The notes under the pieces: generated by a model
What the model saw: the letters and a program-made list of their open reading frames with translations, nothing else
What the model was told of the DNA's origin: nothing
Databases searched by the model: none
In this document: in pieces, positions 18,285-26,171 of the stretch
How positions within the stretch are numbered: position 1 is the first letter of the stretch
Layout of the letters: the number at the start of each line of letters is the position of its first letter
Made by a program: the position numbers and the translations under genes
NCBI GenBank assembly: GCA_034669905.1
Contig: JAXMOL010000001.1
Coordinates: forward strand, 128,001-192,000
Source: Candidatus Hydrogenedentota bacterium
GTDB taxonomy: Bacteria; Hydrogenedentota; Hydrogenedentia; Hydrogenedentales; JAEUWI01
Direction of reading: 5' to 3'
DNA length: 64,000 nucleotides

Positions 18285-19325
18285 GTGAGCAATACAGCTG
18301 ACAAGCGAACTGGACGGGCCATCGCTTCGGGGATTCGCCGGGGGAGTTGGGTCCTTTGCCTGCTCGTTCTGGGAGTCTTTTCCCTGGGGGCAGACAGCTG
18401 TCAGAACTCTTCGCTCGGGCCCGGCGAAGTGGGTAGCGCCACCTGTCTGGCCTGTCACGATGGCCGTAGCGCCAGTAACCACCTGGAATTTCTGGACAGC
18501 CCTCACCAGGGTTTGTCGTGCGAGTCTTGCCATGGCCCCGGCCTGACCCACGTGCAACAGGGGGGCCGATTGGGGCTCTTCATCGACAATCCCAATCGTT
18601 ATCCCTTTGACACGCGGCACACGGCCTGCATCACCTGCCACAGCGACATCGTCTCGCCCGTTGGAATCGGTGCCCAGGGCTTTCTTGCGACCAACCATTT
18701 CCTGGAAGGCGCCGCAACCTGCACCGATTGCCACGATGTGCACAAGCAGGGGGGCATGCTGATCAGCAGCACGTCACCCGCACGGTTCGGGAATGCAAAC
18801 TACGCCACCCTCTGCGGGAGCTGTCACGTCGATCAAGTGGAACAATTCTCGCTGAGCGGCCATGCCCAAAAAGACGTCGCGACGTGCTCCAGTTGCCACG
18901 ACATGCACGCGGGTGACATGTTCCGTGCAGACCCCACAACCAATCGCCTTTGCCTCCAATGCCATCAGAGTTTTGCCCTGGGATTTCAACGGGATGTGGA
19001 CGTGGATTTCCATACGGGCGACATGCACCCCGTCGATCCGGCAGGTTCCGGTTCAAGCCGATGCACCGGGTGTCACTTGCCACCCAACGCAGGCAGCTCG
19101 GCGGTTCAGCCAAGCCATGATCACACCCTCTTTACAATCCCGCCGATTGCCAGTAATGACGCCGTCGCAATGGGTGTGGAACCCGCTCCCCCCAATTCCT
19201 GTGCAGGCGTAACGGGGTGTCATGATCCCGTACAGCCGAATTCCGGTCCCCCTTACGACGAAAATGACCTGGAAAGCAATACGCGACTGCAGTCGCTCTA
19301 CGAAATCATCGGAGCACGGCCATGA
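18285..19325 (+). CDS. Multiheme cytochrome c (8 CxxCH + 1 CX5CH), MtrA/DmsE-like N-terminus, possibly a lipoprotein
   Basis: CLACH, CESCH(GPG..H), CITCH, CTDCH, CGSCH, CSSCH, CLQCH, CTGCH, CAGVTGCH; hydrophobic signal followed by GADSC. Confidence 0.85.
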   Translation: MSNTADKRTGRAIASGIRRGSWVLCLLVLGVFSLGADSCQNSSLGPGEVGSATCLACHDGRSASNHLEFLDSPHQGLSCESCHGPGLTHVQQGGRLGLFIDNPNRYPFDTRHTACITCHSDIVSPVGIGAQGFLATNHFLEGAATCTDCHDVHKQGGMLISSTSPARFGNANYATLCGSCHVDQVEQFSLSGHAQKDVATCSSCHDMHAGDMFRADPTTNRLCLQCHQSFALGFQRDVDVDFHTGDMHPVDPAGSGSSRCTGCHLPPNAGSSAVQPSHDHTLFTIPPIASNDAVAMGVEPAPPNSCAGVTGCHDPVQPNSGPPYDENDLESNTRLQSLYEIIGARP

Positions 19326-20977
19326 AGGGTGTCCCAAGCCCACTATCCCCGAGGAGACCCTTTGGCAGAAAAATCGTTACGGAGCTGAACGCCCTGAACT
19401 CGTACCTGGGAAAAGGATTGGGGGCCATACTGCTTTGCCTGCTCCTGCTTACCTGCTCCCCCGCGCCGTGCTTCGCCGAGGCGGAAGACGGGGCGCCCGC
19501 AGCGGAGGCCACAGAAAACACCCAGGACGACACCGCCTCGGACACAGCGGAGGAGGAGGCCGTGCTGCCAACGGACTCGGACACTGCGGCAGGCAACGGA
19601 ACACGACGTTGGTACCGGGGCACCTTTGAAACGGAGATGGACACGGTTTTCTCTCGCAGCGACGAGGACATCGATTTCAGTCAGTTTCTCCGGTTAGAGG
19701 TAGACCCCCCTCAATACAGTCGCCTGCACCTCCGGGGCTCGCTCTGGCTACATCAGGATTTGAGTTCGGATAGGGACAAACCAAACACACTGCGGGACAT
19801 CAACGATGCTTCGAGTGCCGATGTTCAGGCGCGCTTGCTCTATCTCTACGCGAAGATCGACGATGCCCTGGGTACCAACTCCGAGTTAAGAATCGGACGT
19901 CAGCGGATCCAGGAGGGCGCCACCTACAATCGTATCGACGGGCTCTATGGCCGAAAGCGCGTCGGGCAGTGGGAAGGCTATGCCTTTGTGGGAGCCCGCG
20001 CCTCGATATACCGGGACACCACCGATGATCTGGTGCTCGGTGGTGGCCTTGCATGGATCCCCACGCCCCATACCCGTATTGCCCTGGATGGTTACTATGC
20101 GGAGGAAAGTCGCTACGGAGTATCCGACAGAAGTCGCCGGTTCGGGGGCTGGATACGCCCGGTGGCGTCGGAGCTTAATGACAGTAAGACGACCCTGAGT
20201 CTGTGGCACAATTTCGGTGTGAACACCCGGCTCTTCGCCCGTATCGGTATGTTGGGTAGTGACGTGGACGAGCTGTCGCTGAGTCTGAATGGGTACATAC
20301 CCCGGCTGGACCTCCTCTACGACCTCCACTACCGCCAGCTGTTTGAAACGACGGGCGACACCACGGCCGACCTCTCCCCCTTCTACCAGATTCTCGGTCA
20401 GTACCGGGAACACCAGACCCTCTACCTGGGCCTCCACCGCCCCTTGACGGAGTCGGTCACCCTTACCCTGGAAGGTGAGATTCGCAATGCAGAGAACGAT
20501 GACTTTTACTCGGGAAACCGAGACTATGTTCGGGTTGGCACCGTGTTGTACGTGGATGACGTCTTTCAGGAGGTCGACGTCTCGACTTCCCTGGAGTACT
20601 GGGATGTCTCTGGCGGTGAAGGCACCTGGACAGTGACCGGAGAAATAAGCCGCTCGTGGGGCACCGTGGACGGGCGCTTCGGCGTCGATTACGTCCGCTA
20701 CAAGGATCGTGTCGTGGAGTATGACCAGCGCGCGGCCCTGGTAGACGCGGCCCTGGTGGCCTTTGTACCCGGCATCTATCCCGGCTTCTCTTACGCGGCC
20801 CGCAGGGCCAGCACCCGGATTGTGGATACCCGGGAAAATGTCTACAGCGTGTATGCCGAGGTGGAGTGGGCCTTTCAGGAGGATCAGGATGTCTACACCA
20901 AGATTTCCTTTGAAGAGGACGATAGCCCCGATTCGCCCTATTGGCGAATCCGCGCCGGCTATCGGCTGCGTTTTTAG
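19322..20977 (+). CDS. Outer-membrane beta-barrel protein (porin of a porin-cytochrome complex)
   Basis: Signal peptide, amphipathic beta-strands, 'LRIGRQRI...IDG' motif, C-terminal YRLRF barrel signal; sits between multiheme cytochrome genes; ATGA overlap (true start uncertain). Confidence 0.8.
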   Translation: MKGVPSPLSPRRPFGRKIVTELNALNSYLGKGLGAILLCLLLLTCSPAPCFAEAEDGAPAAEATENTQDDTASDTAEEEAVLPTDSDTAAGNGTRRWYRGTFETEMDTVFSRSDEDIDFSQFLRLEVDPPQYSRLHLRGSLWLHQDLSSDRDKPNTLRDINDASSADVQARLLYLYAKIDDALGTNSELRIGRQRIQEGATYNRIDGLYGRKRVGQWEGYAFVGARASIYRDTTDDLVLGGGLAWIPTPHTRIALDGYYAEESRYGVSDRSRRFGGWIRPVASELNDSKTTLSLWHNFGVNTRLFARIGMLGSDVDELSLSLNGYIPRLDLLYDLHYRQLFETTGDTTADLSPFYQILGQYREHQTLYLGLHRPLTESVTLTLEGEIRNAENDDFYSGNRDYVRVGTVLYVDDVFQEVDVSTSLEYWDVSGGEGTWTVTGEISRSWGTVDGRFGVDYVRYKDRVVEYDQRAALVDAALVAFVPGIYPGFSYAARRASTRIVDTRENVYSVYAEVEWAFQEDQDVYTKISFEEDDSPDSPYWRIRAGYRLRF

Positions 20978-20994
20978 TGAGTAAAGGAGCAACC

Positions 20995-22068
20995 ATGACG
21001 CACAGGCCTGGATTTCGCGGGATCGCGTTGGCGATGATCGCATTGTTTGGCGTCACCGTTGCCTCCGATGCGGCCCTGTTCGGCCGATCGGGGAAATCGG
21101 TGGACCGCGGCCTGAAATCGGGCCACAATGCCCACATCGAGCAGCAATTGGACTGTGCCACCTGTCACGTGTGGGAAGAAAACCGGCATGTAATGCCAGG
21201 ACACAACCTGTGCAGTATATGCCACGAGATCGATGAAACTGCGACCGACAAGGCTTCCTGTAACTTCTGCCACACCCGGGAGGACCAAAGTGTCGGTCCC
21301 GTCATCAAACGGATGAGTGTGGAAACGATTTTTGGGCATGAAGCCCACCTGGACGTTTCTCTGGATTGTATGGAATGTCACAAGACGCCCGGTGAAATAC
21401 CGGATCTGCCGAAGGGGCCACTCATGCCCTGGTGCATGACCTGCCACGCGACGTCAGAACCACCCAAGCTGGAATCGGGCCTGCCCGACCGGGCCTTTGC
21501 GTCGAATGACTGTGCCGTCTGCCACCGCGAACTCAGCCTGGAAACGCGGCCCCAGTTTCGGGGCGGCGCCCGGATCGCCCACGATGCACCCGATATCTGG
21601 TTGAAGACCCACGGCCGGGAAGCCCAGTTTGACCCCCAGTATTGTGCGATGTGCCATGATACGGTCGCGACCTGTGAAGATTGTCACAGCCGCATGAAGC
21701 CCGACAACCACACGATAGCGTGGCGCCGTAAACCCCACGGATTGCGGGCGGTCATCGATCAGAACAACTGTGCGGTTTGCCATGAAGAAGATTCGTGTAT
21801 CAAGTGCCATGAAAAAACCAAACCGACCAGCCACCGGGCTGGATTCGGCGGCTCGCTCAACCGACATTGTGTCTCGTGTCACTATCCCCCCCAGGAAAGT
21901 TCCTGCACCGCATGTCACCAGAATATCGAGCACCGTAAGGCCCGCCGGTCGCCCCATGGACTGGGCATCTACCCGGTCAACTGTGCCGCCTGCCATCCGG
22001 GCGGCCTGCCCAACCGCGCGCCCCATCTTGTAAACAATTCGGTAAGCTGCCGGACCTGCCATGAATAG
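20995..22068 (+). CDS. Periplasmic 14-heme cytochrome c (two c7-like domains plus 'H..W...HG..A' repeats; ExtA-like)
   Basis: ATG 20995 after AAAGGAG; Sec signal; 14 CxxCH motifs in about 357 aa. Confidence 0.88.
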   Translation: MTHRPGFRGIALAMIALFGVTVASDAALFGRSGKSVDRGLKSGHNAHIEQQLDCATCHVWEENRHVMPGHNLCSICHEIDETATDKASCNFCHTREDQSVGPVIKRMSVETIFGHEAHLDVSLDCMECHKTPGEIPDLPKGPLMPWCMTCHATSEPPKLESGLPDRAFASNDCAVCHRELSLETRPQFRGGARIAHDAPDIWLKTHGREAQFDPQYCAMCHDTVATCEDCHSRMKPDNHTIAWRRKPHGLRAVIDQNNCAVCHEEDSCIKCHEKTKPTSHRAGFGGSLNRHCVSCHYPPQESSCTACHQNIEHRKARRSPHGLGIYPVNCAACHPGGLPNRAPHLVNNSVSCRTCHE

Positions 22069-22138
22069 CTTGTTACTTAGTTACCGCGTCTGCCCTGCGG
22101 GACTGCCCGCTCGGGTCGGCGCCAGGAAAGGAAAACCT

Positions 22139-22738
22139 ATGCATACGCTTTCACGGAATGCCCTCATCACCCTCAGCCTCCTGCTTGCTGCCAGCCTGGT
22201 CCAGGCCGAGGAGGCCAAAGACTTCATTGGCCATGACCAATGTAAAGTCTGCCACAACAAGAAGCCGGAAGGAGCCCAGTGGGACGTCTGGAAGGCGATG
22301 AAACACGCCAACGCCTTTGAAGCCCTCAAGAGTGATGCAGCCAAGAAAATTGGGGAAGAGCGGGGCCTCGCCAAGCCCCCCCACGAAGCCCCGGAATGCG
22401 TGAAGTGCCACGTGACGGGCTATAATCTGGAAAAAATGGAAGTGCCCGCCAAGATCAAGATGGCCGACGGCGTCCAGTGTGAAACCTGCCACGGGGCGGG
22501 GGCCGCGCATGTGGCCGACGGTCGCGATGTAATGTTTAAGAAGAAGACCGCAGACGAAATCGACTGGACGGCCCACCTGAAGAAGGTGGAGGAAGCGACC
22601 TGCCTGGCCTGCCATAACGAAGAGAGCCCCACCTGGAACCCGGAACAATTTACCCGGGAGGATGGCACGAAGGTGGGATTCGACTTTGAGCAGGCCAAGG
22701 AAATCGTTTCCCATCCCAACCCAACCAAGGCCAAGTAA
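22139..22738 (+). CDS. Cytochrome c554-family tetraheme periplasmic cytochrome
   Basis: ATG 22139 after GGAAAGG; signal peptide; FIG...CKVCH, W....HA.AF..L, CVKCHVTG, GVQCETCHG.G..H, CLACH. Confidence 0.88.
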   Translation: MHTLSRNALITLSLLLAASLVQAEEAKDFIGHDQCKVCHNKKPEGAQWDVWKAMKHANAFEALKSDAAKKIGEERGLAKPPHEAPECVKCHVTGYNLEKMEVPAKIKMADGVQCETCHGAGAAHVADGRDVMFKKKTADEIDWTAHLKKVEEATCLACHNEESPTWNPEQFTREDGTKVGFDFEQAKEIVSHPNPTKAK

Positions 22739-22910
22739 AAGGTGGTCAGGCCCCTCGCGGAGCGATAGGGCGACGGAACGCCGGACGGACGGGCTAAGTG
22801 GCGCATGCCCGGGTCCGGCGGGGCGAACACGCATTTCATGGATAGTTCAAGCGGCCAAGGTACGCAACCGTTACCTTGGCCGCTTTATTCATTAAGGTCG
22901 CGAAAGCGTA

Positions 22911-23900
22911 TCAGGGGAAATCACTTCCCGGCCACATCACGCTTTGATAGAACCCACTGGCAATACCCTCCTCGCCGGGTGCGAAGATGTGGTTCGCAAT
23001 GTGCAGAGCGATGCCTGCCGCATTGATGGGGAACTGGCCGCCGGTGGGCAGGGGCGCGCTTTCGAATACCACCGTACCCGTCGATTCTCCCGGATACTTG
23101 AAGAAGGCCACGTGCCCGTCGGCAAAGAGCACATTGGCACCACCCGGCACATGGTTGAAGCTCTCGGCCGCATCCGCAATGTTGTCAAGCATAATTGCCA
23201 ACGTCGATTGCGAAGCTGCCGACGCAGCAGGGTTATTGATGTCGGTTATGAAAAACCGTTCAACCCCTTCCCGGAGCCGCAGCGCGCGATCGTAGCCACC
23301 GGGCAAGGGCACCGCGAAGTCCCAGTCTTCCTCGACCCGATAGACATTCTCGTAGATGCGCGCACCGAAGTCCTGCACACTGGCGTAGAACGCGGCCGAC
23401 TGGGCCGGCGTTTGAACCATTTCGTTACTGATGGCCCATCCCAGGTAGGTGTAGGGATGACCCAGGAACTCACACGGCTCAATGGCGCCACTGTTGGTGA
23501 ACCCGGGCGTATCCACGTAATTATCGGAACCCACGTTTCCCCCATCATAGGTGCTCAGTGCATCGCCGGTCGTTGAGGCGGCACTCGGGCAAATGAGGAT
23601 GTTGGCATCATTCATGTATTCGGGATAGACCTGCTCTCCATCGAAGATGGTGTCGAGGGAAGAGACAGTACCATCGCATCGTCTGGTCTTAATGGCGGGA
23701 AACTTTTCTCCCCGGCTTTCGTTGGCATACATCTTAAAGATGATCCCAAACTGCTTCAGGTTATTCTGGCAGCTTGCCCGACGGGCTGCTTCCCGGGCAC
23801 GGGCCAGGGCCGGCAGCAGGATGGCTGCGAGAATTCCAATGATGGCAATGACCACCAACAATTCGATCAGGGTAAATCCCCGGGTGGAATGTTTCTTCAT
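22911..23900 (-). CDS. DUF1559 / prepilin-type N-terminal cleavage-methylation domain protein (H-X9-DG C-terminus)
   Basis: [60 protein letters not shown]; start ATG 23900 after AAGGAAG. Confidence 0.93.
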
Positions 23901-24013
23901 GAAATCGCTTCCTTGGAAATAGCCGTGCGGACGCACCACGGTTCCATACCCGTGTTGGTCGACGTTACGCACGGCAGACGATCGGACCCAAGATGGTCCG
24001 GCAAGTGAATAAA

Positions 24014-24502
24014 TCAGCGTGTCTGCATCCAAAGAGAAGCGGGTGGTGCCCGGGCCTGCCGGGCTGTGGAAACGCCCCGGCCCCGGTGGTCGACATAAGC
24101 CCCGTGTCCGACTGGGCCAACGTCTATGGCCGCCGTTGCCACCGTGCCCGCACCGACGTGCAAGACCATGGTGGCCGCACTGAAATAGGTGTTTTGCAAG
24201 GGCTCGGGTGTAGGCTCCGGCGTGTCCTCCCGGGCTGGAGTTGTGGGCTCCGGCGCGTGATGGTGGTGGGGCTCGCCCTCCCCATGGCGGTGCACCATGC
24301 CCCCGGCACCATGTTCGTGAACCAACGCGCCGTGGTGGTGGGGCGTGGAAAAGAGCGAGAATCCCGTAAGAATCCGAAACGCCAGCAGGACCACGACCAG
24401 GAAAACAATGTCGGAGAAGTCAGCGCTGCCCGCACGCGCCCTGGCCCCACGAAGCATCGTGGACACGGCAAGGGTAGTACGGGGGACAAATTTCAAGGTC
24501 AT
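24014..24502 (-). CDS. His-rich exported leader protein with C-terminal RAPP arrest motif (DUF2946/CruR-like architecture)
   Basis: ATG 24502 after AGAGAGG; hydrophobic segment, HHH..VHEH....VHRH....HHHH cluster, Pro-rich linker, QARAPP near the C-terminus. Confidence 0.65.
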
Positions 24503-24971
24503 GCCTCTCTGGATGGCGCACACGTGGTCTTCATGCGGGGCGGGTTGGTTTTTCCACTCTGCCGGGGTGGAACGGGACGGGCTCGCTGAACCACCCTCCC
24601 CTAAACTGTATCGGCACGTCAGCGATGCGCCGTGCTCCGACGCGAATCGCCACCGTATTCTGAAAAATTCGAAGGGGTGCCCACCGGGGTGTAACACAGC
24701 GCCCGGGTGGGTGCACTACCTTGTAGAACGCAGCGAAACTTTAGCGACGCTGCGGGGATAAATAACCCAATACAACACAAAATTGAATCGACACCATGCA
24801 CCCGCTTTCCGTACCGCGGGTTTCTCCAAACAACGCCTGCCGTATGCAGGCTAACGGGCAGACCAGTCCCTTCGACGTCTCTCCAGGCAGGGGTTCGGCC
24901 TATCTCCACCGACTCCCCTGTTGACGTGTGTACTGGCAACGCTTGACCAGCGTGTTGCTGCCCACATCCCC

Positions 24972-25026
24972 GCCTGGCTCCGGTACTCCTCCCCCTCCCG
25001 TACCCACACCACCGCCGGAGCCAGGC
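24972..25026. repeat. 12-bp inverted repeat
   Basis: GCCTGGCTCCGG ... CCGGAGCCAGGC. Confidence 0.5.
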
Positions 25027-25147
25027 ACTCCCTTTTCAGGCAAGGAGGTGCCATCCATTAGCGACGTAGAGGATGCCCGCGCTAGTGGTTTGAATCATGC
25101 GGATGAGCGATTATTTTGCGGCGGAGCATTCACCAAATTCGATAATA

Positions 25148-25170
25148 TACTCCCCTCCTTGGAGGGGAAT
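25148..25170. repeat. Short copy of the CCCCTCCTTGGAGGGG palindrome
   Basis: TACTCCCCTCCTTGGAGGGGAAT matches the left and right ends of the element at 11514-11598. Confidence 0.65.
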
Positions 25171-25232
25171 GGTTAGGCGGGTCGAATAAACGCTGCTGGC
25201 AGAATAAACTCCCCTGACTTTGATTCAGACCA

Positions 25233-26171
25233 TTAGTCTGACTTCAGCAAGCCCGCTTTACGCTTGCGCCAGGTGTCGTAGAAGACCAGCGCCACAATCA
25301 ACACGCCCACCAGCACTTGCTGCCACGACGTGTCGATATCTTCCAGGTTGCAAAAATTCTGCAAGACATACATGATCAGCGCACCGGCCACGGCCGCGAT
25401 GGCTCCGCCTTCACCGCCCATGAGACTGGCCCCACCAATGACGCAGGCCGCAATCGTATGCAGCTCGTACATTTCGGCCGCCGTGGGTGAGCCAATACTG
25501 GTCTTGGCGGCCAACATCATGCCGCCGAAACCGGCCATCAGGCCACAGAGCGTATAGGCCCGAATCAGCACCCAATCCACCGGGATGCCCGAGAGCCGTG
25601 CGGCCTGTCGGTTCCCCCCCACGGAATAAAGAGAACGGCCGAATCGGGTGAAGGCGAGCATGAGGGCATAGCCCGTTGCGAAGACGGCCACGATGACCAC
25701 CGGAATACGCCAGTCGCGGGTCTCACTGAGCCAACTCAGCGAGTCGGGCAATCCGAAAACCGGGTTGCCGCCAGAGACCCAGAGGGCGAGGCCCCGGGCC
25801 ACCATCATCATACCCAGCGTAACGATAAAGGGTGCAATGCGGCCCTTCGCCACCAGGACGCCGTTGGTGAGGCCACAGGCCGCCCCCACGCCGCAGCCGG
25901 CGAGAACACCCACGGGCATGGGCATACCGGATTTCATGGCCAGACAGCCCACCACACCCGCCAGCGCCGCCACACTCCCGACGGACAAATCGATGCCCGC
26001 CGTGAGTATGACAAGAAGCTGGCCAAGGGCGATAATGCCCACCACCGACGCCCGGCCCGCCACGGACTGGAGGTTGCCGCTGGTGCGGAAACTCTCCGAG
26101 TACAGGGCCAGGCAAATACAGAGACCCGCCAGGATAAAGAGCGGCGAGTGTTTGGCTATAAACTGCTTCAT
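25233..26171 (-). CDS. Monosaccharide (CUT2, RbsC-like) ABC transporter permease
   Basis: GIDLSVGS, IAPFIVTLG, TRFGR..Y..GGN..AARLSGI, IAACVIGGASL.GG. Confidence 0.93.
   Translation of the reverse strand: MKQFIAKHSPLFILAGLCICLALYSESFRTSGNLQSVAGRASVVGIIALGQLLVILTAGIDLSVGSVAALAGVVGCLAMKSGMPMPVGVLAGCGVGAACGLTNGVLVAKGRIAPFIVTLGMMMVARGLALWVSGGNPVFGLPDSLSWLSETRDWRIPVVIVAVFATGYALMLAFTRFGRSLYSVGGNRQAARLSGIPVDWVLIRAYTLCGLMAGFGGMMLAAKTSIGSPTAAEMYELHTIAACVIGGASLMGGEGGAIAAVAGALIMYVLQNFCNLEDIDTSWQQVLVGVLIVALVFYDTWRKRKAGLLKSD

Follow-up and report, generated by a model that had tools for sequence, protein, structure and literature searches.

The nearest described counterparts of the leader studied here are CruR, CutF and the ApdA/ApdP and SecM peptides, which are summarised below from the available parts of the respective sources. 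CruR of Bordetella pertussis (Bp2923; DUF2946, PF11162), whose output is Rho-dependent termination, is a small exported uORF with RAPP near its C-terminus, a motif about 45 residues upstream and a long spacer before its target; the number of intervening residues, 45, varies by no more than one or two, and regulation suffers when five residues are inserted (PMC9426467). CutF, the exported leader of cutO in Rhodobacter capsulatus, has an extracytoplasmic CxxxC metal site, a PPP motif and EF-P dependence; it stalls with Cu, and the stalled ribosome melts a stem-loop that hides the Shine-Dalgarno (SD) sequence (bioRxiv 10.1101/2025.02.05.636593). ApdA/ApdP and SecM combine RAP/P arrest chemistry with an N-terminal localisation signal, monitor Sec/YidC function and precede localisation genes (PMC10951233).

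The pairing of RAPP leaders with DUF1559 genes is already present, undiscussed, in the source data of Fujiwara 2025 (PMC12992588). In the source table of its Fig. 4B, the downstream group 'DUF1559 domain-containing protein' ranks 21 of 30 (112 RAPP versus 68 AAPP, fold 6.46, adjusted p 1e-31), and rows 2689 and 3597 are His-hairpin leaders of the type described below. The available part of that study proposes His-based metal sites for two Streptomyces peptides; its main text makes no mention of DUF1559 or pilin, and in the main text and source table we found no analysis of the leader subtype, the spacing ruler, the RNA structure or the His-tailed clade. Literature searches among openly accessible papers found nothing on this leader subtype, on a metal role for DUF1559 or on any tested DUF1559 function. 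What is new here is thus a ruler-preserving His leader subtype together with a metal-binding hypothesis for one DUF1559 clade.

The locus lies in a window of 64,000 nucleotides, the whole stretch of DNA that was analysed, and its features are collected in Table 1. On balance we favour the reading that shortage of a divalent transition metal makes a CxxC-less, His-type RAPP leader stall its own ribosome, which would switch on a DUF1559 gene with a predicted metal-binding product. The leader shares with CruR the exported-uORF build, the position of RAPP, the motif spacing and the long spacer; unlike CruR, it has TYFS in place of CxxC, no DUF2946 match, an added His hairpin, a pilin-like target and a predicted SD-masking helix instead of or besides Rho termination. 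With CutF it has in common the export segment, an extracytoplasmic metal site (here a candidate) and, as computed for this locus but not for three of four orthologous ones, an SD-hiding stem that a stalled ribosome would weaken, but it is His-only and carries RAPP. The resemblance to ApdA/ApdP and SecM lies in arrest chemistry and localisation signal.

Table 1. Features of the leader-DUF1559 locus (positions in the window)
Feature	Position	Strand	Details
Leader ORF, 162 aa	24502-24014	minus	ATG 24502, stop 24016-24014; orthologs in G063, G061, G060, G070
Hydrophobic helix, leader residues 29-47, likely signal anchor	24362..24418	minus	AlphaFold helix 29-47
His hairpin H55-x-H57-G58-x3-H62-x-H64-x2-G67-G68-x2-H71-x-H73, candidate metal site	24284..24340	minus	alignment conservation
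T105-Y106-F107-S108, degenerate CxxC position	24179..24190	minus	45 residues before Arg of RAPP
RAPP arrest motif R151-P154	24041..24052	minus	eight codons before stop
Anti-Shine-Dalgarno arm directly after RAPP	24028..24041	minus	MFE fold, ensemble pairing
Nested spacer hairpins (24000-23983 and 23975-23922) that bring the two arms together	23922..24000	minus	MFE fold
Shine-Dalgarno region of DUF1559 gene, pairs with anti-SD arm	23906..23917	minus	
Prepilin-type DUF1559 / H-X9-DG gene, 329 aa, type IV pilin core fold	22911..23900	minus	ATG 23900
C-terminal helix with H300 and H304 (HIANH), candidate metal site	22986..23021	minus	helix 286-297 of model = 294-305 of protein

The first-pass annotation had described a 162-aa ORF with a hydrophobic segment, a His cluster and RAPP codons at 24052-24041, and all of these are present. 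From N- to C-terminus the leader consists of a basic N-terminus, the hydrophobic stretch, the His cluster, an acidic Pro-rich linker, RAPP and eight further residues, which places it within the broad RAPP class (<300 aa, localisation signal, R[AG]PP near the C-terminus and a same-strand gene downstream); it is very probably a functional arrest leader. Its start is uncertain, because the SD before 24502 is badly spaced, a second ATG lies at 24457 and neither candidate is in register in the ortholog. The hydrophobic segment, preceded by a basic stretch of 28 residues, looks like a signal anchor and not a cleaved signal peptide, and the basic N-terminus suggests an N-in, C-out topology. It is also the best-predicted block of the AlphaFold model (pLDDT 86), in which the leader as a whole (64.6) and a beta-hairpin at residues 53-64 are of low confidence. 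The leader gave no family match in Pfam, including DUF2946 (PF11162), or in NCBIfam. Look-alikes in the ESM Atlas (0.96) are unnamed, one cluster having DUF6769 in 35% of its members.

Whereas a homolog search with the single leader sequence returned one relative only, a profile built from nine His-type leaders and searched against 1.84 billion proteins returned 34 representatives, 33 of which end in R[AG]PP; the one without RAPP was left out, so that the subfamily comprises 33 members. In the alignment of 39 rows, H55, H57, G58, H71 and R151 are invariant, while H64 is kept in 36, H73 in 33, H62 in 30 and the PP of RAPP in 38. None of the 33 members has CxxC, and the leader studied here contains no Cys at all. 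An aromatic-aromatic-Cys/Ser motif is found by pattern in 32 of the 33, at 45 (20 cases) or 46 (12 cases) residues before the Arg, a spacing measured on matches of a profile which itself favours it; the second Cys position is Cys in 19 members and Ser in 14. The distance of the His hairpin to the Arg, unlike that of the 45/46 motif, varies from 86 to 155. For comparison, the first Cys of the CxxC leaders stands 46-51 residues before the Arg in 65 of 66 cases, and TYFS aligned without gaps to CWYC of a paralogous CxxC leader (probability 33%). The profile-profile match to CxxC leaders was weak (15%) and covered RAPP alone, and a sub-threshold DUF2946 match (17.4 bits) occurred in one of nine His-type leaders scanned. 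The fixed spacing, which the first-pass annotation did not note, links the leader to DUF2946, and the His-type leader may be DUF2946-derived, having lost CxxC by decay and gained the His site. Decay of CxxC to xYYC or xYFS at an unchanged distance from the stall site, with gain of a His hairpin, would amount to a natural experiment in RAPP ligand sensing, and ribosome arrest may on this account also respond to metals besides copper.

To judge how often such leaders precede DUF1559 genes, we counted upstream ORFs in which R[AG]PP is preceded by 70 codons or more and followed by a stop within 14. In this genome (7.4 Mb, 96% complete), such an ORF stands before 5 of 47 DUF1559-like genes, where the genome-wide rate predicts 0.06. 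A stricter genome-wide filter, which also took in the hydrophobic segment and required a terminal R[AG]PP, retained five ORFs, four of them before DUF1559 genes and one at the head of an ABC-type operon whose own last members are a leader and DUF1559; control motifs under the same filter gave 1, 1 and 4 ORFs. That operon type is conserved with two arrest leaders in one transcription unit in L015 (G000:C43:211-5640), L174 and L175, where the gene order is CxxC RAPP leader, unknown membrane protein, ABC ATPase, ABC-2 permease, unknown protein of 335-342 aa, His-type leader and DUF1559.

Across the class, the bare DNA pattern was found in 117 of 133 genomes versus 71 of 133 for a reordered control and is thus partly due to chance. 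Since bare pattern counts are therefore a poor test, the sites were filtered on ORF anatomy. The class-wide set took in 110 of 224 pattern matches, none from families f10-f13. Full leader anatomy is shown by 93 of 122 distinct candidate sites (51 RAPP and 42 RGPP), although these and the other class-wide counts overstate independence because the sequences are related. All 93 have the hydrophobic segment and all have Arg, with no Ser although the pattern permitted it; 67 carry CxxC, and 19 of 61 scanned leaders match DUF2946 weakly (E<=0.05), two of them above cut-off. His-type leaders occur at 12 loci in seven genomes, all of one family, and 11 of these precede a DUF1559 gene. RAPP leaders thus precede other DUF1559 genes as well, in this genome and in its relatives, and the results support a leader of the CruR/CutF kind, His-based, CxxC-less and conserved together with its DUF1559 gene. 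A third subtype with neither CxxC nor His hairpin (L059, L061, L062, L090, L093 and L094) carries an LHG...GPFR motif and heads a separate DUF1559 clade.

The downstream gene had been called pilin-like, and its product indeed scored above cut-offs in Pfam and NCBIfam for N_methyl (36.6 bits), DUF1559 (PF07596, 48.1 bits) and H-X9-DG (TIGR04294, 27.7 bits). Its model (pLDDT 85, pTM 0.84) has a long N-terminal helix (3-53). The best 15 rows from VIA-align are all pilins or pseudopilins, the best with a modest Z of 6.0 (rmsd 3.5, 118 aligned), and Foldseek gave no match at E<=0.001. In a FastTree phylogeny, 72 of 86 leader-led proteins fall in one clade of 76 (0.988), two led genes carrying an unled label owing to cut-offs. 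When led proteins were compared with the 41 unled paralogues of this genome, His300 stood at 0.79 versus 0.02, and His247, Glu301, His304, Glu144, His148 and a Cys75/Cys143 pair were also enriched. At least two His follow the H-X9-DG motif in 64 of 85 led versus 1 of 41 unled proteins, and HExxH occurs in the tail of 33 led and no unled ones; the led tails include HEATHGHDHHH and His/Met runs. These figures overstate the significance since the led sequences are kin; within this genome alone two or more His in the tail are seen in 4 of 5 led versus 1 of 41 unled proteins. The protein studied here has only H300/H304, with Ser at the clade's His247 and no poly-His tail, and the paired His are missing in 2 of 10 complete genes behind His-type leaders. 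One paralogue within the His-bearing clade (HTMLH; G000:C13:122159, plus strand) had no RAPP leader within 1.5 kb, and repeat-like sequences lie upstream of it. Planctomycete genomes likewise hold dozens of DUF1559 copies, 41 or more (PMC8567305, in its available part).

With regard to the RNA between RAPP and the DUF1559 gene, an 11-bp helix with a 2-nt bulge and one G-U had been proposed between the segment just after RAPP and the SD, together with three nested stems. The MFE fold of 24070-23880 contains this helix and all three stems, and a 12th pair uses the final base of the second Pro codon. Stability of this fold gave a z of -1.82, with 9 of 200 shuffles as stable. Ensemble pairing probabilities between the SD bases and the post-RAPP segment are 0.92-1.0; when the 20 nt after RAPP were shuffled, 53 of 5000 versions paired equally well with the ribosome-binding site (RBS). 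With a stalled ribosome modelled as a 13-nt footprint from the first Pro codon, opening the SD costs 3.3 instead of 6.9 kcal/mol (4.6 for a footprint of 9-11 nt, 2.0 for 17 nt), and 3.1 instead of 8.1 kcal/mol in a longer folding context. The anti-SD probe was the standard 16S tail, from which the host's own 16S end may differ. The stall position in the model was that given for ApdA/ApdP in the available part of PMC10951233. A ribosome on the leader stop codon opens the SD as well (2.6 kcal/mol), so that dwell time must make the difference. Both spacer hairpins recur with changed pairs in the G063 ortholog (two sequences compared), and three strain variants (one contig, depth 3.8) fall in predicted unpaired places of the spacer. 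No sigma-70-like promoter or intrinsic terminator was predicted in the spacer, and Rfam gave nothing near gathering score in 22600-25300.

Release of the SD by a stalled ribosome, as the first-pass annotation had it, is thus upheld by the computations at this locus. Pairing in homologs, which had been set beforehand as a test, failed at three out of four orthologous loci: a complement of ten bases exists in G063 in a shifted register (7 of 5000 shuffles), yet with an ensemble P of 0.11, and G060 and G061 have no anti-SD helix (P 0), while in G070 the helix has P 0.78 with little predicted opening by the ribosome. Folding tests covered 90 of the 93 class loci (L075 was left out as spurious, and two had no start found), with window positions numbered from the start of the Arg codon. 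Pairing of the +6 to +32 window is stronger with the RBS of the same locus than with those of other loci (-9.7 versus -7.8 kcal/mol, permutation p 0.0005); the excess is seen in windows starting at +6 to +12 and is gone from +24 on, though the -20 window also shows it. Against shuffles, 21 of 78 non-redundant loci reached p<=0.05 at +6 and +12, versus 2-4 of 75-77 beyond +24, and the modelled stall opens the SD by >1 kcal/mol in only 35 of 90 loci and closes it in 6. SD masking is therefore a tendency of the class as a whole, shown by roughly one quarter to one third of its loci; that it is the main output at this locus we regard as slightly better than an even bet. The spacers of the G060, G063, G064, G065, G066 and G067 leaders share a recurring motif ending in GAAGTGTGTC, which in several loci complements the bases just after RAPP and could form a conserved alternative helix.

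The same metal-released arrest could instead act through Rho-dependent termination as in CruR, with the SD helix as a local add-on. Such termination may be the shared output because the helix is weak or absent in most orthologs, and because the genome has a rho gene and C outnumbers G at RAPP in 84 of 90 leaders and, over the mostly non-coding +30 to +60 window, in 69 of 90; G061, which lacks the helix, has 39 C versus 18 G after the Arg. Against this, the skew comes partly from the Pro codons and is mild at this locus (25 C and 19 G in 78 nt), where the spacer is structured and the SD helix near-certain in the fold, and we think termination with a merely local helix unlikely here. With either output, a stall quite probably means that the DUF1559 gene is on.

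The signal is likely a metal, and this view gains independent hints from the His-rich tails of the led proteins and from G071, where the one His-type leader that does not precede DUF1559 heads a TonB-dependent receptor gene with a TonB protein gene behind it and a strong SD-masking helix. A site made of His alone, without Cys, would suit Ni, Co or Zn better than Cu(I). A scan of 72 neighbours found no conserved metal-gene neighbourhood, and none of ten sampled TonB-receptor loci showed a leader within the flank retrieved. The one clear metal neighbour is in G061, where a heavy-metal P1B ATPase of the cadmium family and efflux type (above cut-off) lies between two leader-DUF1559 units; this supports the metal link and not the uptake direction, and fits induction by excess. 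The response could then run as in CutF, which stalls when metal is present: periplasmic metal would induce the stall, and a His-bearing pilin would be made in metal excess to bind and detoxify it. The importer behind the same leader type in G071 and the CruR-like ruler speak against this direction, and RAPP arrest is described as robust and EF-P refractory in the available part of PMC12992588, unlike that of CutF; we consider induction by excess improbable.

Somewhat less probable still is an export monitor of the SecM/ApdP type, in which the stall would signal how active Sec or membrane insertion is, the His hairpin serving as no more than a folding handle. The RAPP peptides ApdA/ApdP do monitor protein localisation, and the DUF1559 product is a membrane-inserted prepilin, but leaders stand before only the few His-tailed paralogues of this genome, most sister leaders carry CxxC, and four to six His are nearly invariant in the leader. 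That the leader is decaying, its regulation lost or constitutive with the loss of CxxC, is very improbable: the leader region is 57-73% identical to G063, near the third-position identity of 0.61-0.68, and lacks any Cys, but 33 relatives retain the frame, the His hairpin, the spacing and RAPP, and 14 of them have Ser at the second Cys position.

Under the favoured reading of arrest in metal scarcity and release by metal binding, the leader helix would sit in SecY; the His hairpin, which is 80-96 residues away from the P site, would then lie in the periplasm, and YFS would be at the mouth of the tunnel. The arrested ribosome would cover the 5' half of the anti-SD arm, for which the computed SD opening cost falls from about 7-8 to about 3 kcal/mol, and would also shield the C-rich stretch from Rho. 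Metal binding would fold the His hairpin, pull on the chain and release the stall, upon which the SD helix would re-form. The DUF1559 product may be a minor pilin that captures metal via its His-bearing C-terminal helix. A profile search found no TonB-dependent receptor in this genome, whose matches above cut-off include Omp85, seven secretins and ten of the PilT family; one to four receptor matches occur in 43 of 133 class genomes. We put forward, speculatively, that leader-gated His-tailed DUF1559 proteins are metal-scavenging minor pilins on retractile pili, which catch Ni/Co/Zn/Cu outside the cell, bring it in through secretins and occupy the genomic and regulatory place of TonB receptors where these are few or missing, the His-hairpin leader being a periplasmic non-copper sensor that replaces CxxC and keeps the ruler. 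If this is true, the dozens of DUF1559 paralogues per genome would by extension form a pilus-borne solute-capture repertoire; a metal-type arrest leader marking one His-tailed clade would offer the DUF1559 family a concrete first ligand class.

The DNA around the locus has further features. Upstream of the leader, 24700-25080 of the window is non-coding and 76-94% identical to G063, compared with 61-68% at third codon positions of the flanking genes; it has frame-breaking indels, a plus-strand fold z of -2.9 and no Rfam match, and G067 shares a long hairpin of this region (25030-24968), which there too follows the same permease gene. The region is a possible structured RNA or regulatory region. 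Next to it, 25082-25230 is a dispersed repeat of about 150 bases with an internal inverted repeat, MITE- or REP-like; BLAST placed 11 pieces of it in this genome and several more in G063. On the other side, a strong hairpin at 22839-22891 between converging genes has a U-rich tail on the plus strand and is likely a terminator, though terminator prediction did not call it. Converging on the DUF1559 gene, 18285-22738 (plus strand) holds three multiheme cytochrome c genes around a 551-aa protein without Pfam match, possibly a porin-cytochrome conduit.
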